From positions 2,560,001 to 2,624,000 of the forward strand of contig OZ251992.1 of the NCBI GenBank assembly GCA_965246885.1: a DNA stretch of 64,000 nt. Direction: 5' to 3'. The position numbers were made by a program, and so were the translations under genes. Position 1 is the first letter of the stretch; each line of letters begins with the position of its first letter. This DNA comes from Abditibacterium sp. (GTDB lineage Bacteria; Armatimonadota; Abditibacteriia; Abditibacteriales; Abditibacteriaceae). This document shows, piece by piece, positions 1 to 34,251 of the stretch. The notes below the pieces were generated by a model, which did no database searches, was not told the DNA's origin, and saw nothing but the letters and a program-made list of their open reading frames with translations.

Positions 1-1437
1 GTCGAGAGCGCGGGCGTAGTCGCCTTGCAATACCTGAGCGTTGGCAGCAACGCGGCGGGGCACGACGTGGGCGGGCAAGGCCGAAGTCGCGTCGCGGTCG
101 TTGGCGGGCGCAAGGTCGGCATTTTCGGGCGCAAAAGCGCGGTTGATGCGCTCTTCGGCGGCGCCGAGGTCATTGGCGGCCTGCGCCCCGGCGTTGTGCG
201 CTCCGGCGACGGCGCGGGCGACTTCCTCTTTAATGCGCGCCAACACGCTCGCGCCCTCACCGTCGGGGGCGTTGGGGTCGCGTAGCAAGCGCGCGGCAAT
301 TTGTTCGCTGGATAAACCCAGCGTTTTGATGCGGAAAGCGTCGGCTTCTTGGAGCGCGTTGGGGCGCGGCGCGAGCAAGCTGTCAAAGGCTTCGACGCCC
401 AGTTTGTAGCAGCAGCCCTGCGCGATGAGGTAGCCGGGAATTTCAAGCGCGCTCATGCCGAACGAGTAAAAGGTGACAGGCGAGCCGTTCTTGTCGCCCG
501 CGAACATACTCGCGCTGCCGTCCACCGTGCGCGCTCCCAACTGCGCCGCTTCGGGGTTGAAGATGTCGTTGTGCAGGAACTGGGCGGTGGTGACTTTGAC
601 TTCCTCGAACGACTGCTCGTCGCCGCCACCCGGCTGCGAAAGGTAGGTCGTGTCGTAGGGCGAGTAGCGCGTCGCGTTTTCGGGGCGACCGGGGTGAAAC
701 GGATACTGGACGGAGTAGTCGTTGCCGCTCATGTAGTGGTTCAGTTCTTTGAGAGCGGCAAAAGCGTTGGCGCGGCGGCGCTGCCAACGGAGCGGATCGT
801 ACGACAAGTTGGGAAGCGAAAACAAGCCCACGCGCTGAATCGGGTAGCCGTTGGCGGCGAAAGCGTAGTGCAGCAAGTAACCCAAGTCAATGAAGGCGCC
901 TGAACACGTGCCGCCGCACAGCGTGCCGACGACATACACGACGGTGTCCTTGGAAAGCATCATCGGCGGATTGGTGCCGTCGGGAAGCGGGCCGCGCGCC
1001 AGTTGTGCTTCTTGGGGCGTCAAGCGTTGCAGGGCGTCGAGGCGCACCTGAATCTCGTCGCGGATGCGGTTGCAAAGGCCGGGGAACAAAAAGGCGAGGC
1101 GCCCCACCATGCGGATGTTGCCTGCGCCCTTGGTGATGGCGCGGTCTTGGAGCGACAACAACGCGTCCTTGTCCCACCACTTCTCCAAATCGAGTTGCTC
1201 CTTGTAGCGCCCCGGCGAGTTGATGACGTTGGAATAGGAGGTCGCGTCCACGCCCAGATGGAAGTAGTTCTGGTCGAGTTCACCCGTGCCGTGCGGGGCC
1301 TCTGTTTCCAACACGAGGAATTTGAGCCAAGGCGCGGCGTCGAAGCCGCCTTGCTCCCATTGGATGCGTTGCGCGATGTAGTCGCAAACGTCGTAGCCGG
1401 TCGAACCCAAGCCGATGATTAAAGCGCGTTGTGCCAT
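1..1437 (-). CDS. Tubulin/FtsZ-like GTPase (Tubulin_2 / FtsZl1-type), 3' end truncated by window edge
   Basis: Not in the ORF track; translated by hand from ATG at 1437 and open for 479 codons to base 1. Motifs: MAQRALIIGLGSTG (T1 loop), GAGNIRMVGRLAF, VYVVGTLCGGTCSGAFIDLGYLL (T4 signature variant), ANAFAALKELNHY, PYDTTYL, FYSFGMSALEIP. Confidence 0.85.
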   Translation of the reverse strand, partial: MAQRALIIGLGSTGYDVCDYIAQRIQWEQGGFDAAPWLKFLVLETEAPHGTGELDQNYFHLGVDATSYSNVINSPGRYKEQLDLEKWWDKDALLSLQDRAITKGAGNIRMVGRLAFLFPGLCNRIRDEIQVRLDALQRLTPQEAQLARGPLPDGTNPPMMLSKDTVVYVVGTLCGGTCSGAFIDLGYLLHYAFAANGYPIQRVGLFSLPNLSYDPLRWQRRRANAFAALKELNHYMSGNDYSVQYPFHPGRPENATRYSPYDTTYLSQPGGGDEQSFEEVKVTTAQFLHNDIFNPEAAQLGARTVDGSASMFAGDKNGSPVTFYSFGMSALEIPGYLIAQGCCYKLGVEAFDSLLAPRPNALQEADAFRIKTLGLSSEQIAARLLRDPNAPDGEGASVLARIKEEVARAVAGAHNAGAQAANDLGAAEERINRAFAPENADLAPANDRDATSALPAHVVPRRVAANAQVLQGDYARALD

Positions 1438-1466
1438 GAGAAGTTCCGTAAAACAAAGGGACTAAG

Positions 1467-1913
1467 CTAAGCCGCCTTTTTCGACAGCGAGGAAATAAGC
1501 AGGGCGGACACGAACAGCCCGCCAAAGAAGAACGCGTAGGGCGCCCACCAAGGCCACGTGAGCGGCAACATCAGCATCCAAACGAAAAGCAACACAAGCG
1601 CGCTCACCCAAGCGGCCACACTTCCGGCGCGCGGCGCGAAGGTGCCCAACGCCACCAACGCCTGATACACGATCAGCCCAAACAGATAAGCGAACACAGC
1701 GCCAAGCGCAAGGCTCACATACAAGCCGAACTTTTGCAAGTAAAGGCTCCACACGCGTAGCGTAACATCAACGGCCCCTAAAAAGGACGGCGTTCCCAAC
1801 CGCGCGGCGCCCGTTTGCGCCCATGCCGCGCTGGGATGGAGCGCCAGAATCGCTACAGCTGGAAGTAGCGCCAGCCACTGTCCGCGCAACCGAAAGAAGA
1901 AAGAGTGCCTCAT
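1467..1913 (-). CDS. Small integral membrane protein (signal peptide plus about 3 TM helices), tubulin operon member
   Basis: 148-aa ORF with AWA-Q signal-like N-terminus and three hydrophobic segments; 7-nt and 29-nt gaps to its neighbours. Confidence 0.7.
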   Translation of the reverse strand: MRHSFFFRLRGQWLALLPAVAILALHPSAAWAQTGAARLGTPSFLGAVDVTLRVWSLYLQKFGLYVSLALGAVFAYLFGLIVYQALVALGTFAPRAGSVAAWVSALVLLFVWMLMLPLTWPWWAPYAFFFGGLFVSALLISSLSKKAA

Positions 1914-1920
1914 GATGGTG

Positions 1921-3348
1921 TTAGAGTTTGCGCACCGACACCGAGGCCACGATGCGCCCCGTCGCGGTGTCTATAAGGTCGAAGTCGCCGCGCTGTCCGG
2001 TTAACTTTAGTCCGGTCGGCGTGCTTTGAAAGCCTTCGGAGTTCTGCGCCGACAGCGCGCCGTTGCTAACGAGCAGCTTCTTGGAAAAGTCGGATTGAAT
2101 GAGCGCCAAAGGCCGGTCGGTATCGAATGTGACGCCCGGCAAGCGGTAGTGCGCGCCCTTGGCGGGCGTGTCTTTGCCCAGAATCGGCAGCGTCCGCGCC
2201 GGAAGCGCCGCAACCTGCCGCGACTCCTGCTCATCAAGCCGAAAATTCACGGGCCGCGCGACCCAAAACAACGCGCCGCCCAGTAGAGCAAGAAGCGGGA
2301 GAATCAACAGAACCGCGCTCCCGCCCCCACCAGTGTTCCCCTCGGTTTGGGAAGGCAAAGGTGTTGCTCCCACCGCTTTCGCAGTGGGCGCCGCAACTTC
2401 GCCAGTGAGCGGCTCCAATTTCTGCGGCGCGAAGACGGACATGTCGTATTCGAGGTTGCCGACTTGGACGGTTTCGAGGCTTTGTTTGGGATTCAACCCG
2501 GCGTCGCCCATCGCCTTGGCAAAAGCGGCAAAGCGTTGGGGATTTGATTCCAGCACCAAGTCCTTGTCGGTTGCGGGCGTTTCCGGTCGCGTGCCGTCCG
2601 ACAGAGTTTGCGGGGCCTGCGCGAGGTCGTTCCAGTCCAGCACGAGAAGGATGGTGCTTTTTGGGTCGAGGTCGTTCTGCTCCATCCAACCCAACGTTTT
2701 TTGCAGCGCCGCGCGCCAGTCGTGTCCGTCGCTCCACTTTCGGCCTTGATACTCGTCGTCTTGGGGCGATACCGCGACGGACTTTTTCAGGTTCGAGGTG
2801 TCGCGGAGCGCTTCAGCGAGGGGTTGGATGGCGCCGCGCTTGTCGCCCAGAATCGAGAAGTGATAGGGCCATACGGTGAGCGTGTCGCGCACTTGCGCAG
2901 GTGGCAAGTTGCGGCGCGACTGCGCGAGGGCATCTATGAAACCTTCGATGCCGCGCCGCGTGTTGGTCAAGCGCGCGTTGGAATCGCCGTAGCGCGCCAC
3001 TTGCGTCATGATAATCCAATGGTAGCCGCCCGGAGCGCCGAGTGCACCCGCTTGCGCCGACGGCACGCCGCGTTCTTCGAGGGCTTTGCGCGCGCGAAAC
3101 AAGAGCCGCTTGAGAACATCGCCGCTATCAGAAGTGCCCGCCGCCACATCGGGCGAGGCCGGGGGCGAAGAAAGTGGTGGCAGCGCGTCTTGAGCGCGAA
3201 GCGGCGCCAGAAAAGCGGCGTTTAGCAACAGGAACAAGCCAAAGAAAAAAGTTGAAAATCGAAAAGTCAAGCCGGAAACCTCAAGGGCGAGCGGGCCAAA
3301 GCGCGCGGCGCGGTTAATTTTAGCTGACTGGAGCGGTGTCCGTCCCAA
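1921..3348 (-). CDS. Membrane-anchored protein with degenerate vWA-like extracytoplasmic domain and C-terminal beta-rich cytoplasmic domain
   Basis: 475-aa ORF; hydrophobic N-terminal signal (LRA-Q), alpha/beta region with DGHDWRAALQKTL...STILLVLDW resembling vWA elements without a DxSxS motif, TM helix VLLILPLLALLGGALFWV. Start uncertain. Confidence 0.55.
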   Translation of the reverse strand: MGRTPLQSAKINRAARFGPLALEVSGLTFRFSTFFFGLFLLLNAAFLAPLRAQDALPPLSSPPASPDVAAGTSDSGDVLKRLLFRARKALEERGVPSAQAGALGAPGGYHWIIMTQVARYGDSNARLTNTRRGIEGFIDALAQSRRNLPPAQVRDTLTVWPYHFSILGDKRGAIQPLAEALRDTSNLKKSVAVSPQDDEYQGRKWSDGHDWRAALQKTLGWMEQNDLDPKSTILLVLDWNDLAQAPQTLSDGTRPETPATDKDLVLESNPQRFAAFAKAMGDAGLNPKQSLETVQVGNLEYDMSVFAPQKLEPLTGEVAAPTAKAVGATPLPSQTEGNTGGGGSAVLLILPLLALLGGALFWVARPVNFRLDEQESRQVAALPARTLPILGKDTPAKGAHYRLPGVTFDTDRPLALIQSDFSKKLLVSNGALSAQNSEGFQSTPTGLKLTGQRGDFDLIDTATGRIVASVSVRKL

Positions 3349-3372
3349 AATTTGGCGCGGACGGCAGAAGGT

Positions 3373-4962
3373 TCAAGCGTGGGGAGTGGCGGGTGCCGAA
3401 AGCGCGGGCGGCACGCTCAGGTCAAAAGCGCACAGGCGGCTTTCCTTGGCACTTATCCAATTCACAACGAACGTTTCGCCGCACGGCGCGAGCGTTAGGG
3501 TGCCTCCCCTTCCCGATGCGTCGCGCAAAGGTCGTATCCTGAGCCACGAAAGCGGCGCGAGCGCGACTGGAGCGACGGCCAGGAGCCACAGCGTCACGAT
3601 ATCGCCCTCATCAGTCGCGTAGAGGAGACAATGCGCCGCGCCGAAAACTGCGCCGGTGGCCCAAACCACAGGTGCGCCCGCTGGAAGTTCCTGCTCGCGC
3701 GCATCGTCCAAAGGCCGCGCGCCATCGAGGGTCGTGATAACGCTTCGCGTTCCCGACCGAAAGAACGCGATACTCGTTCCATGCACGCACGGAAACGGGA
3801 AAACGGCGTCGTTGGGCGCCATAGGAACCGACAGTTCGGCCCCATCGCTTCCGCCGTGTTCGAGGCGCCGCGCCCACAATCCCTGCGCGGTGCGGCCCCA
3901 CAGCCACAGCGCCGCGCCGTCTGGAATGGCGCCTTCGAGCGAGCGCCCATTGGCTTCGACCTGAAACTCCGCGTGCCATTCCCCCTTTGCATGGCGCCAC
4001 AGCGTGCCCTCGGTGCGAATGGCGGGCGTGTCATCCCACACGAGCAGTTCACGGAAAGTAGCGGGCGACAACCCCGGTGGAAGCGCGAGGTCGCTCGCTT
4101 CAAAGAGCGCATCTCCTCCGCGCGCGCTCACGCCCACAAGTGTGTCGTGCCATTGCCCAACGGCCAACCAATGAGTTGGCGTTGCGGCTTGGAACAGCCA
4201 CTCGACCTCGTGCGGTTGCCACCCCGCACCTGTTGGCGCGGCATCGGGCACGCCGCCGAAGTCAAAAGCGCCCCCCGCTTCGGGCGCATCGAGTAACTCT
4301 TCGCGCGCGCGGCGCACCAAGTGCTGCGGTTCGCCGCGCCCCGACAAATTGAGCGGCACGCGCGCCACACCGCGCGCATGGAGCAAATGGGCGAAGCCGT
4401 GCGTCAGCAGCAATCCTTCGCGCCGGGGGAACAGCCCATTGGCGGGCAATGGCGCGGGCACCGCGAAAGTCGCAGGCGGCGCGAAAGGCCAAGGCTTGCC
4501 CGACCGGGGGCGCCCAAATAGCCACAGCTTTTCGTCCTGCCACCACGCCAATACCCCATAACGCGACGCCATGCCGCCAAAGCGCCCGGTCGTTACTGGG
4601 GTGTGGCCGCCGCCTTCCAAAGCGGTGGGGCGCGCGCTACCCCACTGCGACGCCAACACAAGCGGCGCCCCGCCCGCAACGCCGCCATGAAAAGGATGCG
4701 GCTCGATGGGCCGCGTCCGCGCGACCGCGCACCGCTTGGTTTGGCAAGCGCGTGCATCGAGCGGGTGCAATCGCCCGCACAGCGCGCACAAGAGCGTGAA
4801 CCGCTCGCAACCGGGGCACCGCGAAACCGGAACGAGGGCGCGCACCGGCAAACCCTCTTGGCCGCATCCATACGGGCACGGCTGCAACAACGCATAGCCG
4901 CAATGAACGCAAAACCGCGCACCGTCGGGCGAATCCGCTTGGTGACAATGGAAGCACTGCAT
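3373..4962 (-). CDS. Multi-zinc-ribbon protein with C-terminal beta-propeller-like region
   Basis: 529 aa; N-terminus has CFHC, CVHC, CPYGC, CPGC, CALC and CQTKRC Cys pairs, followed by repeated short Trp/aromatic beta-strand segments. Confidence 0.65.
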   Translation of the reverse strand: MQCFHCHQADSPDGARFCVHCGYALLQPCPYGCGQEGLPVRALVPVSRCPGCERFTLLCALCGRLHPLDARACQTKRCAVARTRPIEPHPFHGGVAGGAPLVLASQWGSARPTALEGGGHTPVTTGRFGGMASRYGVLAWWQDEKLWLFGRPRSGKPWPFAPPATFAVPAPLPANGLFPRREGLLLTHGFAHLLHARGVARVPLNLSGRGEPQHLVRRAREELLDAPEAGGAFDFGGVPDAAPTGAGWQPHEVEWLFQAATPTHWLAVGQWHDTLVGVSARGGDALFEASDLALPPGLSPATFRELLVWDDTPAIRTEGTLWRHAKGEWHAEFQVEANGRSLEGAIPDGAALWLWGRTAQGLWARRLEHGGSDGAELSVPMAPNDAVFPFPCVHGTSIAFFRSGTRSVITTLDGARPLDDAREQELPAGAPVVWATGAVFGAAHCLLYATDEGDIVTLWLLAVAPVALAPLSWLRIRPLRDASGRGGTLTLAPCGETFVVNWISAKESRLCAFDLSVPPALSAPATPHA

Positions 4963-4966
4963 GGAA

Positions 4967-6202
4967 TTAAAGTTGTCCCGTCACGCGCGGCGCGTCGGAG
5001 AGGGGCGGCGCGACCATTGGCGGGGCAAGCGGGACTGTTCCGGCGCCCCGTTCTTGGGTCGGCGCGCCTAATTCTTCCATTGGCGCACCTAATTCCGTCG
5101 TTGGCGCGCGTAATTCTTCGGTTGGCGCAATCAACTCAACGACTGAATTAGGCGCCGCAACCACTGGCGCGGTGGCGCGCATGAGGGGCGGGGCGGCTTC
5201 GGGCACTTTGGCGGGTGGCGGCGCCGCACTTTGAAAAACGGCGCGGCGCACGCGGGCTGGTTGCAGCAGTTTCTTTTGTCCATCGGGCGAGATTAGCTCG
5301 AAGCCGCCGCGCTCGACCGCCACAATTACGTTATGGCGGGCCACATCGGAAGTGGGCGTTTGCAGGAACTCCGAACTCGTATGGAAGCGGGCGTCGAAGC
5401 GGGTTTCTCCGGGCACAATTTCCAGCGCCGCGATGCCAGTGCGACGGCGCAGCGTTTCCTTGACGTGCGCGCGCAGTTCCGCCGTCGCCGTTTCCAAGCA
5501 GCGCAGCGTTTGGCGTTGTTCTGGGGTGGAGTTTTGCGGCGTCAAATCGCCCCACGAAATGCGCGCGTCGGGCATCCACAGCGTCCGCTCGAATTCCTCC
5601 ATGCGCCCCTCGAACCCCGCGCCGCCACCGCTTTCCAGTTCGTTTTGCAAGGCGCGTAGCGCGCCAAAATGCTGGAACAACTGCGCCGCGAATAGGTGCA
5701 CCATGCCGCTTTCCACCTCGAAGGCCCTCAAGCGCTTGGTCATCTCCTCGCACCACGTCGCCAACAATGCGGGCGATTCAGTGCGAATCTCGAACGCCAC
5801 CCGTTGCCCCCACTGCGCGCGAAAGGCTTCCAATTGCGCTTGGAGGCCCGCATTTTCCGCGCGCACCGCGTCGAACTGCGCCCCGACTTCGCGCCGCATT
5901 TGCGCCAACCCCTCGCTCGCCCGTTGCTCTTGGCGCTTGAGTTCTTCAGTTACTTGCGCGCTCTGCGTTTTGAACTCATCGGTCAGGCGCGCCAGAAAAT
6001 CGAGCAGTTGCGCGTTCAGCCTGTCGTTGTCGGCCCTCTTGTGTTCTGCGAGCGTCGCTTGAACGCGCGCCAGATGTTCCGGCAAGAGCCGCTCGGTGTT
6101 CGCCTCCAATGACTTGAACTGCCCTTGCAACTGCCGTTGGCTCTCGCTAACGGCGTTGAGTTTATCCTCCATCTCTTCGAGATTTTTGCGGAAGTTGAGC
6201 AT
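4967..6202 (-). CDS. Coiled-coil protein with C-terminal GrpE-like (nucleotide exchange factor) domain
   Basis: 411 aa; long heptad-rich N-terminus, then GIAALEIVPGETRFDARFH...NVIVAVERGGFEL...LLQPARV matching the GrpE head pattern G(V/I)..I...GE.FDP..H...V..V...GY...VLRPA.V; Pro/Ala tail. Confidence 0.7.
   Translation of the reverse strand: MLNFRKNLEEMEDKLNAVSESQRQLQGQFKSLEANTERLLPEHLARVQATLAEHKRADNDRLNAQLLDFLARLTDEFKTQSAQVTEELKRQEQRASEGLAQMRREVGAQFDAVRAENAGLQAQLEAFRAQWGQRVAFEIRTESPALLATWCEEMTKRLRAFEVESGMVHLFAAQLFQHFGALRALQNELESGGGAGFEGRMEEFERTLWMPDARISWGDLTPQNSTPEQRQTLRCLETATAELRAHVKETLRRRTGIAALEIVPGETRFDARFHTSSEFLQTPTSDVARHNVIVAVERGGFELISPDGQKKLLQPARVRRAVFQSAAPPPAKVPEAAPPLMRATAPVVAAPNSVVELIAPTEELRAPTTELGAPMEELGAPTQERGAGTVPLAPPMVAPPLSDAPRVTGQL
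5040..5144. repeat. 21-nt-period tandem repeat (about 5 units) encoding 7-aa EL(G/R)APxx repeats
   Basis: ggcgcgcctaattcttccatt / ggcgcacctaattccgtcgtt / ggcgcgcgtaattcttcggtt / ggcgcaatcaactcaacgact; protein ELIAPTE-ELRAPTT-ELGAPME-ELGAPTQ. Confidence 0.8.
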
Positions 6203-6209
6203 GATGTTT

Positions 6210-8804
6210 CTAAAAGGAGTAGGAAAACAGAAGTTTCAGTTGACCCGATTGGTCGCTGGACACGTTCAAGCGGCGACCTTGCAACTCCATTTTGACAGAC
6301 ACCGCGCGCACTGGAGCGTCGTGTCCGCCCTCTTCCACCCCGGCGTCCACGTTGCGAAGCGCGAACATACCGACGCGCCCCTCAAACGGCGTGTTTCCCG
6401 CCGCGCCCCGAACGAAAACCGTGAAGCGCACGCTCTGGTCGGTGTGCAGGTCGTAAGTTAGCTCTCTGGAGCGCACCGATGCGAGCGGCGCGTGTTCGTC
6501 CGCCTCGAAAATCGCTTTGCCGCGTTCGTCCACGACGCGCAGCGCATAAGGGAGCGTGTTGTCTTGCGAGGCTTTGCCCGCCCAGACCGCGCCGCCCGCA
6601 ACAGCTAACATCCTGTCGGAGTCATCGAACACATCGCCGTTTCGCACGGTCAGTTCTTGCACGCCGCCGGGAAAGAACTCCTGCAACCAATCTTGCACGC
6701 GGCGCACGCGGCAGTTGCCGCCCACGCCAAAAACCCACTTGATTTCAACAGGCGCCGGAACGCCTGCCCCATCAGGAAAAATGCGCCGCCGCATTTCGGC
6801 GCCGATGGCGTCCAAGCGGCGATTGACCACCACTTCGTCGAACTCGCGGCGCGCGATTTTGACCTGTTTCGACTCCACGCCCGCGACGGTTGATTTAAAC
6901 TCCAGTTCGACCGGCGTGCCGGGCGAACCGGCGCCCGCGAACTGGCGCTTGAAGGCTTCGGTTTTGTTCCACACGTCGAACTCGCGCACCCAAGGGTTGG
7001 GGATGCGCGCGTTCCCGGCCAGTTCCACTTCGCCTTGCAAGAGGATTTCCTCGTTCTTGGGTGCCAATTGCGCGATGGAGTTCAAGCGTTTGTAGGTGCC
7101 CTCGTCTTTAATGAAGTAGCGCAGGAAGTCGTACGGAACGCCCGCTCCATTTTGCCAGATGGACAAGTAAATTGCCGTCGTGCGCGTGAGGGCTTCGCCG
7201 CCAAAGGTGGAAACTGCCGGTTTGCCGGGTGCGGCGCCGCCGTTTTGGTAGCCGCCGAGGGTCGCCACTTCCTCGAAGCGCATTCGCGCGCCGTCCAAGC
7301 GCACTTGGCCCAGTACAACGTCGGTCGTGCCGCCGCCCGAATCGAAGATGCACGCCCAATCGCCGTCGTGGGGCGGGTCGAACTGCGGGTAGCGGTAGTG
7401 GCCGTGTTGCAACAGGAGGTAAATCGCGGCGCAAAACGGCTCTGTGAAGAACTCCAAGGTGTCATTGGGGCCGACGAAGTGCGCGGCGCGGATGGCCTTT
7501 TCCAAGCGCGAGCGTTGCAAGTTGTAAAGAGTTTGGGTGCCGCCGCGATGCGAGTCGAGCACCGGCAAAGAAAAGTTCCACGCGACCGAGGCGGCTTCGC
7601 CGCCTTCGAGGTCGGGCAGAATAATCTGGCGGCGCAGCGTTTCGAGGTAGCGTTTAAGCAGCAAATCCACGCGGTAATTCGGGCCAAACTTCGCGACATA
7701 CGGCTCGCCTTCGGCGCGCAGGAGAGTTTTCAGTTCGGTCACGAACAGACCCGGTTCGAGGTCTTCGACCCGCCGTCGCAGGGCTTCGTAGCCGATGAAA
7801 AAGCCGACTTCATGGCCGTTGCGAAACGAGACATACAGCACGGACGGAAAGCGGTGCGGGTCATCGCGTCCCGCGACGGCGTGCGGATCAGTGAGGGGCA
7901 CAGCTTCCAGTCGGTCGTCGCGCCCGTCGCGCTTCCAAATGGAGGTGCCCGACGTGCCAAAATCCACGCCCAACACATAACGCGTGCGCGTCGTGAGGCC
8001 GCCGGGCGCGGGCACCATCAGGGATACCTCGCCCAATTGGTCGCCGCTCGCGCCGGAAAACACCACGCGCGCGATGCCCGCTTTGGCCATTCCGGTCGCG
8101 TGAATTGTCCACTCTTTGCGCCCGCCCGGCGCCAAAGTCCACTCGCCCGCTCCGGGAGTTCGCGCCTCAACTTCCATCCCGACCGGCCACAGGGGAGGGC
8201 GCAACACAAGCGGCGTTTCACCGGAATTGCGCAGCGACAACACGCGCTTGCGCGCGCGACCATCGAGCATCAGAAGCGTGGTTTCCACTTCCAAATGCGC
8301 CGGACGCGGCGACGACGCCAAGACCCACAACGGCTCCCACACGCGCGTGCGATTCTCCGGCTCGATGTCGAAGCCGTCGCGCGGCGCGCCGTCCCCCGTC
8401 GCCAGATAAAGCGGCACTTGCAACGGCTCGTCCACCGGTGCAGGCGCTTTACCGACCCAGCGCAACGAGAGGGGCACCGTCGTCGGCGCAAGGGAAGACG
8501 GCTTTTTGATGTCCGCCGAAAAGTGCGCGAGAGCTTGGCCGCGCACATCGAAGCGCACGAGCGACGTTTCTTCCACGCGCGCCCGCACCAGCAAGGCGCG
8601 CAGTCCAACCGCGCGGAGCGCCAAACTTGCGGAGTTCGCTTGGGGCGCGAACACCAAGCCGGGAGCGCCCATTGGCGCGCGAAGCGACATCGTCGCGCGC
8701 CCGCACTCCGGGCAAAAAGCGAAGGGCGGTTCAATGCGCGCTGCACATCCATCGGGATGAATCTGTTGACAGGTAAGGGGTTCGATGGTGGCTCCTAAAA
8801 CCAC
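6210..8804 (-). CDS. Atypical Hsp70-family ATPase with N-terminal zinc ribbon and Ig-like domains
   Basis: 864 aa; CQQIHPDGC..FCPECG zinc ribbon; LSLRNSGETPL Ig-like strand motif; Hsp70 NBD motifs VLGVDFGTSGT, FPSVLY, TEPFCAAIY, FDSGGGTTDV, FGGEAL, VGGNCRV, AVAGGA. GTG start uncertain. Confidence 0.8.
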   Translation of the reverse strand: MVLGATIEPLTCQQIHPDGCAARIEPPFAFCPECGRATMSLRAPMGAPGLVFAPQANSASLALRAVGLRALLVRARVEETSLVRFDVRGQALAHFSADIKKPSSLAPTTVPLSLRWVGKAPAPVDEPLQVPLYLATGDGAPRDGFDIEPENRTRVWEPLWVLASSPRPAHLEVETTLLMLDGRARKRVLSLRNSGETPLVLRPPLWPVGMEVEARTPGAGEWTLAPGGRKEWTIHATGMAKAGIARVVFSGASGDQLGEVSLMVPAPGGLTTRTRYVLGVDFGTSGTSIWKRDGRDDRLEAVPLTDPHAVAGRDDPHRFPSVLYVSFRNGHEVGFFIGYEALRRRVEDLEPGLFVTELKTLLRAEGEPYVAKFGPNYRVDLLLKRYLETLRRQIILPDLEGGEAASVAWNFSLPVLDSHRGGTQTLYNLQRSRLEKAIRAAHFVGPNDTLEFFTEPFCAAIYLLLQHGHYRYPQFDPPHDGDWACIFDSGGGTTDVVLGQVRLDGARMRFEEVATLGGYQNGGAAPGKPAVSTFGGEALTRTTAIYLSIWQNGAGVPYDFLRYFIKDEGTYKRLNSIAQLAPKNEEILLQGEVELAGNARIPNPWVREFDVWNKTEAFKRQFAGAGSPGTPVELEFKSTVAGVESKQVKIARREFDEVVVNRRLDAIGAEMRRRIFPDGAGVPAPVEIKWVFGVGGNCRVRRVQDWLQEFFPGGVQELTVRNGDVFDDSDRMLAVAGGAVWAGKASQDNTLPYALRVVDERGKAIFEADEHAPLASVRSRELTYDLHTDQSVRFTVFVRGAAGNTPFEGRVGMFALRNVDAGVEEGGHDAPVRAVSVKMELQGRRLNVSSDQSGQLKLLFSYSF

Positions 8805-11109: not shown

Positions 11110-12498
11110 CTAATGAGCGCCGGGAGTGCCCGCCCCTCTGGGAGCACCACCGGGGCCAGTCGGCCCACTGGGAAGATTGCCCGCCCCACCACTGACCGCC
11201 GTGTTGCCCGTTGTGGGAGCCGTAACGGAGCCGCCCGTCGAAGGGGGCGGCAGTTTGACGGTGTTCGACGGGCCACGCTGAACCACTGTTCCGCTTCCGG
11301 TGATGATGCGCGGGAACGCCGTCGGCGCCAGAGTCGGCGTGACGGTCGCAGGCGACTGGGTCGCGCTCGTGATCGGCCCACCCAGTTTGCCGTTAGCTCC
11401 CGGCGTCGCGGGGACGTTGCTGACGACGGGGATGCTGGACTGCGCGCCCGTGCCCGTCGAGGGCGAGGGCACGCGCTGTTGTAGCGAGAGCGTCTTGCCG
11501 TTCAGTTGCATGCCCCAGATGCCCAATTTGCGGTGCCGCGCATATGCTTCGTCCAAAAGCCACGTGGGTTGGTCGAAGGAAGTGGGCGAATACAAGTCCA
11601 CAACCGCCAAACCGGAGCGGATCAGCATGCGGTTGAGCGAGAGCGAGGTGTCTTTCTTGATGGCGCCGCCGCCCGCCGATTTGAAGAAGATTTGCACGAG
11701 CGGGCGCGAGTCGTAATCTACAGGGTATTTTGGGTCTTGAAAGACGTCGAGCGACTGCGAAACGTCAACGGGCGCGGGCGGAAGCGGCGTGGGTGTTGCG
11801 TTTAACGAGGCGCGCGGCAACCCTTTGGGGGTGGCGGTCGGGGTCGCGGCGGGCGCGCCGGGAAGCGGGGTGGGTTGGGCGTAGGTTCCGGTGAGGTGCA
11901 CCCAGCGCGAGACGGCTTCGACCAAGCGGCGCGAGGCCTCGGCTTGCAAGGCAAGCTGATCGGGGTCTTGCAAACCACCACCGACTGCTCCCGCCGGGCC
12001 GGGGACGATGACGCCCGCCAATCGGACGGGGTTGTTGACGTCTTTGACGCCGCCAATGAGCAACCCTCCGGCGGGCACCGATGCGGCGACGGGCGCGGCC
12101 CCTTTGGTGGCAGTCGCTCCGGCTTTGCCGCCCGCTTTGGCGGCGGGAGCGGCAACGACCACAGCGGCGGGCGCCGGGTTGAGCGGTTGCAACACGAGAA
12201 GCAACGACGAATTTGCGGTGTCGCCTGCCACGCGCGGGCCGAACTGGATGTCTTGCAGGTCGGCGACACGGAAAGCAGTGGGCAACCCAGTCGTGCCGTT
12301 CATGGCGATGCCCTTGCCCGTTCCACCCGCGACCGTCGTGCCCTGCGTCGCGTCGAAGGGGTATGCGATGGGCGTGGGCGCGGGGGTGGGCGTGGGAAGC
12401 GGCGTGGGCGCTGCGGTAACGAAAAACGTCGAGTTGGAGCAGCCAACCAAAGCGGGCGCCAGCAGGAGCAGGGCAACGGCGGAAACAAAGCGGTTCAT
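11110..12498 (-). CDS. Lipoprotein with degenerate thermonuclease (SNase)-like domain and Pro/Thr-rich linkers
   Basis: Lipobox LVGC after MNRFVSAVALLLLAPA; VRLAGVIVP, DYDSRPL and LNRMLIRSGLAVV...EAYARHRKLGIWG resemble SNase. Confidence 0.65.
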   Translation of the reverse strand: MNRFVSAVALLLLAPALVGCSNSTFFVTAAPTPLPTPTPAPTPIAYPFDATQGTTVAGGTGKGIAMNGTTGLPTAFRVADLQDIQFGPRVAGDTANSSLLLVLQPLNPAPAAVVVAAPAAKAGGKAGATATKGAAPVAASVPAGGLLIGGVKDVNNPVRLAGVIVPGPAGAVGGGLQDPDQLALQAEASRRLVEAVSRWVHLTGTYAQPTPLPGAPAATPTATPKGLPRASLNATPTPLPPAPVDVSQSLDVFQDPKYPVDYDSRPLVQIFFKSAGGGAIKKDTSLSLNRMLIRSGLAVVDLYSPTSFDQPTWLLDEAYARHRKLGIWGMQLNGKTLSLQQRVPSPSTGTGAQSSIPVVSNVPATPGANGKLGGPITSATQSPATVTPTLAPTAFPRIITGSGTVVQRGPSNTVKLPPPSTGGSVTAPTTGNTAVSGGAGNLPSGPTGPGGAPRGAGTPGAH

Positions 12499-12569
12499 CG
12501 GGAAATGGCAGTCAAAGGAAAGCGCATCTGGGCGCGGCGTGCAACTGGTCGGGTTCACACAAGCACAAC

Positions 12570-13298
12570 CTACACGAGCACATCGCGGGCGTTGCGCAGG
12601 CCCACGCGCTCGCGTTGCGGGCCACCCAAAGCGCAGTCGCGGATCATGCCCAGTGCGGCGGCGGGATGGAAGCGGCCCCACTCGCTCGCCCACGCCACGC
12701 GGCGCTCGCCCAACACGGCGACGGCGCTCGCCACGACATCGCGCTCGGCGAAGGCAGCAACGGGAACGAAGAGGGTGTTGACGGCTTCTTTCATGGCGGC
12801 GACGGCGATTTGGGTGAGGTATTCGCTTTGCGGCGACACGAAGAACTTGACCATCGGGAACTCCTTGGCGGCGTCAACGGCGGCTTGGAGCGTCGCGGGC
12901 GAGGTGGCGGTGACAAAAAGCGGCTTGGAGTAGCGGCGCAGCGCGTTCAGCACTTCGCGCCCCCCGGCTGTTGTAAGCGCGTCGGCGTCGGTGTTTTGTT
13001 CGAGCAAGGTGCCGCAGAAGGCGGGCTTGACGAGAAAGCGGCGGGCCAAGTCGTGCGCGGTTTCGGCTTGGTGGATGGAAACCGTCAGCCAGCCGCGAAA
13101 GCGCGGGTCGAAGGCCAACTGCTCGGCCAAAAACGCCGCGCCGCCGCGCGCGTCGGTCGAGGCAAGCGGAGAAGAGAAGCACAGCGTCTCGACGCCAAAC
13201 GAGTCGGCGTAGCTCTTGGCGCCTGAGGCGTCGGGCGCGGCGACGGCGATGGTTTGCGGGGACACGCCGAAGTAGCAGTGAAGGTCAATGAGTGGCAT
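12570..13298 (-). CDS. Amidohydrolase-2-like TIM-barrel protein (degenerate)
   Basis: LIDLHCYFG N-terminal motif; LGERRVAWASEW and VGLRNARDVL C-terminal pattern. Confidence 0.7.
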   Translation of the reverse strand: MPLIDLHCYFGVSPQTIAVAAPDASGAKSYADSFGVETLCFSSPLASTDARGGAAFLAEQLAFDPRFRGWLTVSIHQAETAHDLARRFLVKPAFCGTLLEQNTDADALTTAGGREVLNALRRYSKPLFVTATSPATLQAAVDAAKEFPMVKFFVSPQSEYLTQIAVAAMKEAVNTLFVPVAAFAERDVVASAVAVLGERRVAWASEWGRFHPAAALGMIRDCALGGPQRERVGLRNARDVLV

Positions 13299-16573: not shown

Positions 16574-17896
16574 TCAGGGGCGGCCCTGCCGGATGTTGTC
16601 GCGGATATACATGAAGTAGGGATCGTTGGAATCCATCGGCGTCTGGTCTTGAGCGCGCATTCCGGCAAACCATTGATCCACAATCGCGCCCTGCTGCTCG
16701 GTTCCAAACTCTCCCCATGGGCGACCGGGCGGGCCGTAGGCATAGGCGCTGCCGCCGAATGAATCGTGCCCTTGGGTCACCACGTCTTCACAGAGGAGAC
16801 CGGGCAAGAACGTCCTGTTCTGGATCTGCCACGCATGAGTCAGTTCGTGAATCAACACCTGCCCGCGCTTGGGATAACCTTTGATGGCACGCATTGGGTC
16901 GTTGAAGGAAGGGCCAATGTTGAGGTAGATGTTCTTGTTGTCGATGCCGGGAAAAGTAAAGTAGCGCCCGCCGAGTCCGGCCATGTTCGTTAGCCAGATT
17001 CTTTCCCTCGGCGGCAGCGAGCCGCCGAAAACTGTCGCGGCGAAGGCGTATTCGTCGCCGTGCATCTGGCGTTGCTGGATCATCGCATTGGTCACGGCGC
17101 CGACGGTCGCTCCGACTGGCAAGGCCAAAGCTAACGTTCCGCCCGACGCGAAAACCACGACTCCCGCGAGCAAGCCGAACTCGCTGCCCAGCCCCAGATC
17201 GCCAAAGACCTGACCCATTTCTCTGCCCAATCCAATGACGACGCCTAGCCCAGCGCCTATCGTGTGCGTTCCGATGTCCAGCACGAACGAGGCGACATCT
17301 TGAACGGCGCCAATCACGCCCGTCGGCTTGTATTCCTTGGTCACGGCGAAACTGCCCGCCTTCACATCCGGCCAGAAGTCCTTGATGAACGGATGCGAGC
17401 CGCTGATGATATGGTTATCGCTGCGGTTCTTATTGCCCACGATATGGCCCTCGACATGACCGCTTTGCTGTGCCACGAAAGCCAAACCGTTGGCGGCGGT
17501 GAAGATGGCGCGCACTTGATAATCGTAGTCGGCGGCGCCACTGTCGTGCAGATGGAAGTGCGCCTCGTAGGTGCCGTCGCTGCGGAGCTTCAGGTCGACC
17601 CAGCCGCCGAGCGCGGTTCCCGTTGGAGTCGAGACGATGCCGTGAAAGTGGACTTCTTCGAGTGGTGCGGCGACGGCGGGCGGCGGAGCGTCCAGCACGC
17701 CGATGAGGGCGGTTAGAGAAATGGGATCCGCCATGCCGAAGCGACGGGCGAGGGCGCGAACGCTCACGATCCCGCCGTTACCGGGCCTTGGTATTCCAAT
17801 AATGGGGCGAGGGAGGGGTATTCCAATGATGTTGCGGGGCCTTGGCCGCACGGGGTTGGCACTCGCGGTGCGGGCGGCTTCGCGCAGACTTTTCAT
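16574..17896 (-). CDS. Putative zinc metallopeptidase / toxin-like protein with Gly-zipper hydrophobic segment
   Basis: 440 aa; LIHELTHAWQ (HEXXH) plus downstream FGTEQQGAIV; central Gly-rich hydrophobic stretch; Pro-rich N-terminus with IIGIP repeated twice. Confidence 0.65.
   Translation of the reverse strand: MKSLREAARTASANPVRPRPRNIIGIPLPRPIIGIPRPGNGGIVSVRALARRFGMADPISLTALIGVLDAPPPAVAAPLEEVHFHGIVSTPTGTALGGWVDLKLRSDGTYEAHFHLHDSGAADYDYQVRAIFTAANGLAFVAQQSGHVEGHIVGNKNRSDNHIISGSHPFIKDFWPDVKAGSFAVTKEYKPTGVIGAVQDVASFVLDIGTHTIGAGLGVVIGLGREMGQVFGDLGLGSEFGLLAGVVVFASGGTLALALPVGATVGAVTNAMIQQRQMHGDEYAFAATVFGGSLPPRERIWLTNMAGLGGRYFTFPGIDNKNIYLNIGPSFNDPMRAIKGYPKRGQVLIHELTHAWQIQNRTFLPGLLCEDVVTQGHDSFGGSAYAYGPPGRPWGEFGTEQQGAIVDQWFAGMRAQDQTPMDSNDPYFMYIRDNIRQGRP

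Positions 17897-32346: not shown

Positions 32347-34251
<1,905 letters not shown>

Follow-up and report, generated by a model that had tools for sequence, protein, structure and literature searches.

The 64,000-nucleotide stretch analyzed here (hereafter the window) comes from the genome of Abditibacterium sp. (GenBank assembly GCA_965246885.1, contig OZ251992.1, positions 2,560,001 to 2,624,000; G000:C1:2560001-2624000 in our numbering), a bacterium placed by its named relatives in Abditibacteriaceae, within the little-studied phylum Armatimonadota. One end of the window holds an operon that encodes a divergent tubulin of the FtsZl1/Tubulin_2 family together with an atypical Hsp70-type ATPase, a GrpE-like protein and several membrane proteins. 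An earlier note, made from the letters of the window alone, described six co-oriented genes separated by 7, 4, 24, 7 and 29 nucleotides (A-B, B-C, C-D, D-E and E-F). These figures are exact and the genes lie on the minus strand, but the run continues past the window edge with three more overlapping co-oriented genes, which brings it to nine and adds a motor pair resembling ZorAB (genes G and H) and gene I. NCBIfam assigns a name to none of the nine. The features are listed below in window coordinates or, past the edge, in those of locus L001, whose position 17001 is window position 1.

Gene A, 6210..8804, minus strand: 864 residues, lidless Hsp70 with a zinc-ribbon and immunoglobulin (Ig)-like front
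Gene B, 4967..6202, minus strand: 411 residues, coiled coil, divergent GrpE head and low-complexity tail
Gene C, 3373..4962, minus strand: 529 residues, N-terminal zinc ribbons and beta-propeller
Gene D, 1921..3348, minus strand: 475 residues, exported membrane protein with a domain like von Willebrand factor A (vWA)
Gene E, 1467..1913, minus strand: 148 residues, small membrane protein with three hydrophobic segments
Gene F, 1..1437 (the part in the window), minus strand: FtsZl1/Tubulin_2 tubulin; the whole open reading frame (ORF) is L001 15753-18437, 894 residues
In-frame remainder of gene F past a TAG codon, L001 15072-15752, minus strand: 226 codons
Gene G, L001 13336-15072, minus strand: 578 residues, MotA/ExbB/ZorA-like membrane protein with a long helical tail
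Gene H, L001 12443-13357, minus strand: 304 residues, MotB/ZorB-like transmembrane helix with Asp26 and an OmpA-type domain
Gene I, L001 11733-12446, minus strand: 237 residues, no known family

The tubulin assignment of gene F is secure (Pfam Tubulin_2, E 1.4e-46), and its GGT-x-SG loop, of the FtsZ-like GGGTG(S/T)G type, is conserved, with G175-G176-T177 and G180 invariant. The Hsp70 fold proposed for gene A is borne out by its structural model (predicted local distance difference test, pLDDT, 86.7), in which a zinc ribbon and two Ig-like beta-sandwiches (~10-265) precede an Hsp70 nucleotide-binding domain (~275-748) and a beta-only domain of the substrate-binding type (~752-864). Foldseek ranks DnaK first for this model (E 3.4e-24, 16% identity), and the VIA aligner gives the nucleotide-binding domain of Hsp110 (Z 28.2) and BiP (Z 28.1, over 271-860), followed by MreB (25.8) and BeeR (24.9). 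Pfam HSP70 is matched by gene A only at E 0.013 and by 5 of the 21 family members. The phosphate-1, connect, phosphate-2 and adenosine motifs of the Hsp70 nucleotide-binding domain are all present: the residues kept across 21 divergent rows are the phosphate-1 aspartate D281, K359 (nearly so), the catalytic E455 of the EP motif, D488 with GGGT (DxGGGT), K619 and the adenosine glycines G695-G696. Placed with the general DnaK motif patterns, they align with the motifs of the housekeeping DnaK encoded in the window. Because the phosphate, catalytic and adenosine motifs are conserved and line up with DnaK, gene A most likely encodes an active ATPase. The linker and the beta substrate-binding domain of Hsp70s are found in the model as well as in the alignment with BiP. 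The helical lid is absent: after residue 747 the model has no helix of four or more residues, and 754-863 is beta-only. For the front of a gene A homologue, Atlas gave leads to HYDIN/ASH/NEW3-type Ig domains (feature score 0.77, TM 0.41-0.57); these are below our bar, and we do not propose any relation to eukaryotic ASH domains. The start codon of gene A is itself uncertain. The segment 8760-8830 of the window has AGGAG and, after it, an ATC that lies a few codons ahead of the zinc ribbon; the congeners L038 and L039 have ATT there, and no in-frame ATG, GTG or TTG was seen before the zinc ribbon of L038. This is only a hint of a non-AUG start, because most other genes of the operon have no Shine-Dalgarno motif.

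The protein of gene B in this window gives by itself no Pfam GrpE match. However, the structures found first by its family profile are GrpEs (E 2.7e-7 and 3.6e-7), as the earlier note would have led us to expect, and Pfam GrpE is matched at E<=0.01 by 8 of the 24 proteins in the gene B slot, with 3 of them scoring over the cut-off. The divergent head (~228-324) lies between the coiled coil and the low-complexity tail, its profile also finds the stand-alone GrpE of the genome (E 1.2e-10), and the elements expected of a GrpE, from the coiled coil and helical bundle to a beta head bearing the signature, are present. On these comparisons gene B is GrpE-like and the predicted exchange factor for gene A. 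The pair is private to the operon, as had been noticed, with the housekeeping dnaK starting 23.6 kb away, close to the 24 kb given before.

In the canonical DnaK-DnaJ-GrpE chaperone system, an Hsp70 works with a J-domain activator and a GrpE partner. Gene A shares with it the Hsp70 fold, the catalytic motifs and a GrpE-type partner, but differs in its low identity to solved DnaKs (15-18%), its extra zinc-ribbon/Ig front, its missing lid and the J-domain gene that a small profile did not find in the cassette; relatives of gene B also depart from the canonical system, since they often have a membrane anchor or two GrpE heads, or come as two genes. Elsewhere in the genome there are two further pairs of an Hsp70 with a long GrpE (G000:C1:2928170-2930260 and 756492-758461) and a GrpE adjoining a J-domain gene (571546-572273 of G000:C1).

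Gene C was described as multi-zinc-ribbon and beta-rich. The cysteines of its N-terminal zinc ribbons are indeed conserved, and the beta-rich part downstream matches propellers (model pLDDT 73.6, predicted template modelling score 0.76); gene C is a candidate adaptor. A natural chain of 2100-2200 residues (P0184/P0111) combines C and an FtsZl1 tubulin, both complete, with a Ser/Thr kinase; this fusion, a single event, is a direct hint that C may work with the tubulin. A predicted complex between tubulin 1-480 and C 1-517 scored 0.00, with controls not folded, and is evidence neither way. P0150, P0152 and others were considered as B-C fusions and ruled out, as they have no GrpE head. P0150, P0152, P0164, P0175, P0178 and P0179 are proteins of 1140-1310 residues with a signal peptide, a transmembrane helix, a long coiled coil and a C-like propeller, and one protein of this type is labelled Fimbriimonadaceae.

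The remaining genes encode membrane proteins, apart from gene I, which is shared with L020 at 36% identity. Gene D has a signal peptide, an exported vWA-like domain, a proline linker, one transmembrane helix and a cytoplasmic beta domain, with hydrophobic segments at 29 and 339. The transmembrane part of its earlier description stands as it was, while the vWA identity is supported via relatives and not via the window protein itself: the metal-ion-dependent adhesion site (DxSxS) is degenerate here and intact in distant members, relatives with a Pfam VWA_2 match are found by the D profile, and Atlas places D in vWA clusters at 0.87, which is a lead only. No solved structure is matched by sequence by the D or the tubulin profiles. 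The small gene E is a membrane protein, as proposed. For gene G, the protein of this genome alone has no Pfam MotA or PADLOC match, and the best solved match of the family profile is ZorA (E 1.4e-19, a score that comes in part from the coiled coil), followed by TolQ (2.4e-10); ExbB is also matched. Gene H matches Pfam OmpA (E 1.7e-5), and its membrane Asp26 is invariant in 15 of 15 rows. With a ZorA-like transmembrane domain and tail in one and a ZorB-like Asp and wall-binding domain in the other, G and H are, by their profiles, a MotAB-type pair of ZorAB build.

We searched for the cassette across the phylum, scoring three gene A candidates per genome. Gene A was found in 36 of 301 Armatimonadota genomes and Tubulin_2 in 108. 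The two occur together, with Tubulin_2 in 34 of the 36 genomes with A versus 74 of the 265 without it (Fisher test, p 5e-15, a value that is overstated because the genomes are related). The pair is on one contig within 12.7 kb in 24 genomes and on different contigs in 10, while 2 genomes have no tubulin match. The co-occurrence on which the earlier note had made its idea depend is thus confirmed. In the host family, 4 of 27 genomes have A, and C and this tubulin occur in exactly those four; in nearly closed congeners the three were looked for and not found. In one family, Tubulin_2 is present in 14 of 14 genomes. Loci of different classes, bearing the titles Abditibacterium, Chthonomonas and Fimbriimonas, share the order A-B-C-D-(E)-F, and G/H adjoin at least 13 of 33 A-type loci, on either side, a lower bound since several loci are incomplete. 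The A-to-F cassette is a real conserved unit: its parts and their folds, its gene order and its all-or-none presence are all observed. A scan of genome contigs with the single sequence of gene A gave no matches, and the scan with an alignment gave 18 loci. We set aside as an outlier L055, a locus with a Bacillota title and a weak A match (E 9e-5): B and C are both missing next to it, and its genome has no Tubulin_2.

In a tree of tubulin domains (n=62), all but one of the A-linked tubulins group in a single clade (support 0.999), to which members without A belong as well, whereas kinase-linked members and those of a second Hsp70 type (L029, L032) fall outside it. This tree was quickly made, with a midpoint root and without duplicates, and the sample is biased, as loci were partly chosen by the presence of A. 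The two loci of the second type have a chaperone set of their own, made up of an Hsp70-vWA fusion, another Hsp70, a pair of GrpE-type genes, and Ig and vWA genes. In three other tubulin loci kinases occupy the slot of A-B-C, and one A locus (L097) has a double-GTPase (DO-GTPase). Trypsin-like protease genes adjoin the cassette in several loci (L097, L100, L092 and L045).

Part of this operon has been described before. FtsZl1 was reported to have vWA proteins, kinases, GTPases and OmpA among its operon partners, and the supplement places a DnaK (amb2961) beside one FtsZl1 and a GrpE (Cagg_1315) beside another, in different genomes (PMC2875224). The order in FtsZl1 operons of the Deinococcus type (DR_0540-DR_0536 and Deide_2p00760-00800) is that of D-E-F-G-H here (PMC2875224), and the vWA-type gene, the small gene, the tubulin, the MotA-like and the OmpA-like genes all lie in one run in our locus. 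The Deinococcus plasmid proteins match our D, E, F, G and H profiles at about E 1e-25, 1e-4, 1e-142, 1e-43 and 1e-49, although a counterpart of E was found in only one of the two loci tested (E 1.4e-4). None of the four Deinococcus loci searched in six frames has A, B or C. Where PMC2875224 read the OmpA gene as an outer-membrane protein, we read it as a MotB-type motor subunit. By these matches D-H is the published operon type, which the earlier note had missed, and A-B-C an added module.

Two other kinds of systems are related in composition. Tubulin, vWA, HSP70 and GrpE are variable components, acting close to the membrane, of the double-GTPase conflict systems with GAP1-N2, which are mainly from Firmicutes and Actinobacteria; the overview given there mentions GTPase systems that have an HSP70 together with homologues of tubulin, and the paper suggests that tubulin and HSP70 effectors form multimeric assemblies (PMC7159879). 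As presented there, the tubulin theme and the HSP70 plus GrpE theme do not overlap and both need a core of GTPase and GAP1 (PMC7159879), whereas the present operon combines tubulin with Hsp70/GrpE and does not have this core. Neither GAP1-N2 nor DO-GTPase2 (PF20013, PF19993) was found in this genome, which is 92.7% complete; DO-GTPase1 and GAP1-N1 were not searched genome-wide. Two supplementary files of PMC7159879 name no Armatimonadota term, and its source-data tables might list such loci. A private Hsp70 and GrpE pair is not unusual in itself, as the genome has two more and the pair is a described theme of GTPase conflict systems (PMC7159879).

The motor pair recalls Zorya, where ZorAB combines a MotA-like subunit with a long cytoplasmic tail and a MotB-like subunit with a membrane Asp and a wall-binding domain, and where mutation of this Asp stops the motor (PMC11946911). 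G and H share this build and the membrane Asp, and G has the long tail. However, the pair is optional here, PADLOC scores for ZorA/ZorB are weak for most members, and PADLOC matched no soluble partner (ZorC/D, ZorE or ZorF/G) among the nine genes. No characterized system with this composition was known to the earlier note, and we found no paper on a combined tubulin-Hsp70-GrpE cassette in the open literature, subscription journals being mostly outside this search. Most of the parts have been predicted before and the combination is uncharacterized; added here are the phylum count, the direct comparison with the Deinococcus operon, the fusion of C with the tubulin, the weak tally of defense genes in the flanks and the nonsense allele described next.

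The tubulin gene does continue beyond the window, as had been noted, but its frame ends early, at a TAG in codon 895 of 1121. Orthologues have unbroken frames of 1116-1136 residues, within the range of the long-helical form (~1000-1150 residues), whereas here the protein ends at 894. The rest is open and in frame, and the 226 codons past the TAG align to the C-terminus of orthologues, which have Thr or Ser at this position and never a stop. Sequencing error was rejected as the cause, since contigs of both sequencing runs bridge the site without differences (the two runs are from one study, and one is possibly the source of the assembly). The tail past the TAG has 0.28-0.33 identity to distant relatives versus 0.32-0.34 for intact orthologues, and third codon positions still differ most. 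Since conservation of the tail is roughly at the level of intact orthologues, the TAG is, on this comparison, recent. The same features would be expected if in this genome the TAG were read through, or the gene purposely split, leaving the tubulin functionally intact, which we regard as quite improbable: a recent nonsense change also accounts for the conservation of the tail, the Thr or Ser of the orthologues gives no precedent for a stop, and TAG is the normal stop of three other genes of the operon. A suppressor tRNA was also rejected, as no tRNA with a CUA anticodon is among 50 ARAGORN calls, in which two 'Stop' calls are dispersed palindromic repeats. The copy of the operon in this genome is probably crippled or altered, because the tubulin is cut at codon 895, and as this protein is truncated the copy in the window is a poor reagent.

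The palindromic repeats just mentioned are 55-130 nucleotides long, resemble repetitive extragenic palindromes and bacterial interspersed mosaic elements (REP/BIME), and are miscalled as tRNA-Stop by ARAGORN; they occur at G000:C1:1435707-1435791, 3354297-3354378 and ~25 other places, and one copy overlaps a call for tRNA-SeC (selenocysteine) at 351206. Among the tubulins, those of this genus (L038, L039 and L001) have a proline-rich tail in place of the C-terminal zinc ribbon seen in most others aligned. The tubulin of a Deinococcus radiophilus plasmid (L112) is also cut, by an IS630 element at ~836 codons, near cas6.

Around the operon, comM/yifB precedes it and the following genes were used in the comparisons or adjoin it:

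WYL regulator, L001 9237-10247: beyond the operon, 1.5 kb past its end
Type I-B cas6-cas3, L001 2642-9232: beyond the WYL gene
Housekeeping dnaK, 32410..34251, plus strand: TIGR02350 at 859 bits (cut-off 822.55), for comparison only

The WYL regulator and the type I-B genes (cas6-cas8b-cas7-cas5-cas3, at a lower G+C of 54%) lie directly downstream of the operon, within G000:C1:2529844-2553247, which also has a very long repeat array (214 copies of the seed, period of ~66 nucleotides) and, by eye, a cas1-like fragment. In the window, dnaK is followed by a 174-residue ORF without Pfam or NCBIfam match and by a DnaJ, and a lipoprotein-like gene of 527 residues (11110-12693) with a weak match of the staphylococcal-nuclease type (E 0.0017) is found upstream of yraN and comM. 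Promoter-like sites (0 and 3 seen versus 1.5 and 1.2 expected in two scans) and terminator-like sites (26 versus 18.5 and 25 versus 15.6) are left uninterpreted.

What the operon does can be proposed with less assurance. The earlier note suggested a chaperone acting on a membrane-tethered tubulin polymer, for remodelling or defense. We tentatively favor, at somewhat less than an even chance, an accessory conflict machine of the FtsZl1 kind that spans and senses the envelope, is gated by nucleoside triphosphates (NTPs) and is most likely directed against phages or other invaders; the Hsp70-type ATPase would be what switches it. Disturbances of the envelope would be sensed, in the manner of ZorAB, by D, the exported vWA protein, together with E and, in loci that have it, by the G/H ion motor anchored in the wall, and the signal would enter the cytoplasm through the inner beta domain of D or the helical tail of G. 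Tubulin F, which binds GTP and has a long helical body, would then assemble at the membrane as the output, be it a scaffold, a barrier or a membrane-damaging assembly. Gene A, cycled by B and brought to F by C, would keep the tubulin unassembled or dismantle its assembly, and thereby set a threshold; A-B-C would fill the slot taken by kinases or GTPases in other FtsZl1 operons. That A-B-C gates the tubulin is inferred from the gene order, the C-tubulin fusion and the kinases in the same slot. The defensive role is suggested by the patchy all-or-none presence, the flanks that differ among three congeners, the adjoining WYL and CRISPR-Cas I-B genes, the nonsense allele, the ZorAB-like motor, the defense-type neighbors of Deinococcota plasmid tubulin loci (4 of 4 opened among 8 hits, one with an insertion sequence inside the tubulin), the DO-GTPase at one A locus and the kinship with predicted GTPase conflict systems (PMC7159879). 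Among these, the patchy presence, the differing flanks and the fresh nonsense allele fit a fast turnover.

Several observations weigh against this conflict machine. Among the A-type loci (115 flanking ORFs, 29 genomes), two have clear defense neighbors, namely type IIG restriction (L047) and bacteriophage exclusion (BREX; L065), and two have partial ones; most flanks are housekeeping or metabolic, in a tally without background control. Gene A was not found on plasmids, the G+C content of the operon is host-like (63.7% vs 62.5%) and the A-linked tubulins are mostly in one clade, for which reasons the operon looks old and settled and not like a fast-moving island. The core has no nuclease or toxin gene and no recognizable effector domain, its genes match no PADLOC model convincingly, G/H do not adjoin the tubulin in two congeners, and polymerization was left open for the FtsZl1 family (PMC2875224). 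The module is also split from the tubulin in L041/L089, where A-B is apart from C-D-F, and in L090; insertions lie inside the run in L025 and L090, and D-F-G-H loci without A-B-C (L074, L075, L077, L080) indicate that A-B-C is dispensable for the tubulin. Finally, a profile of only five sequences found no J-domain gene save the control among 5019 ORFs of 95 loci, so that the usual Hsp70 cycle would have no activator in the cassette; gene A could, however, be served by the five J-domain genes that the genome has in other places.

The housekeeping flanks, the host-like composition and the old clade-level link of A with the tubulin speak for membrane remodelling or envelope repair, in which a Tol/Mot-type motor would pull on the wall, FtsZl1 would shape the inner membrane and A-B-C would be the chaperone of its assembly and disassembly. 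Membrane remodelling was proposed for FtsZl1 by Makarova and Koonin (PMC2875224), the matches of the G profile to TolQ and ExbB point the same way, and so does the wide distribution of Tubulin_2 in the phylum, complete in one family. Yet the cassette is in only 4 of the 27 genomes of the host family, a nonsense allele is tolerated here, G has a ZorA-like long tail that TolQ and ExbB do not have, and all plasmid loci opened had defense neighbors, making this explanation an unlikely one, if clearly worth keeping in mind. It is improbable that A acts beside the tubulin module and not on it, as a structural or signalling actin-fold switch that changes shape or oligomerizes with ATP and is reset by B. 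The missing lid, a J-domain partner not found in the loci searched, the filament-forming MreB and BeeR close behind the Hsp70s in the structural ranking, the separation of A-B(-C) from D-F in some genomes and the multimeric tubulin and HSP70 effectors suggested in PMC7159879 would suit such a switch. However, A keeps a linker and a beta domain aligned to the substrate-binding region of Hsp70s, and its GrpE partner is conserved, as would suit a cycle of clamping and release; in addition, A-B-C is connected to the tubulin by the natural fusion of C with it. A role in transport or secretion, with the motor driving the export or surface display of a cargo kept unfolded by A-B, seems very improbable. 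It has for it the ExbB/TolQ-type motor, the exported vWA protein and the suggestion of transport or signalling by a reviewer of PMC2875224, but the loci read share no conserved gene for a channel, a secretin or a cargo, and the motor is optional.

Within the conflict machine that we favor, a more specific version is rather doubtful as a whole: immunity triggered by a motor and acting without a nuclease, where the ZorAB-like motor and the vWA sensor would trigger a giant tubulin assembly that a J-protein-independent Hsp70/GrpE pair, aimed by the propeller adaptor, would gate and reverse. If true, an actin-fold and a tubulin-fold NTPase would work as one bacterial immune machine, and the FtsZl1 family would have its first function. 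Few tubulin families are as divergent as FtsZl1, for which our literature searches turned up no experimental study. The compact minimal set of six genes is intact in two congeners (L038/L039 type), and L020/L056 represent an intact type with the motor. Across the loci, one core of tubulin, vWA and motor genes can take different switches, be they a kinase, a GTPase or an Hsp70/GrpE pair. Gating of the tubulin by the Hsp70 with no J-protein involved would, if real, widen the range of Hsp70 roles, and if the set defends against phages, sensing of the Zorya type would be extended to a cytoskeletal output.

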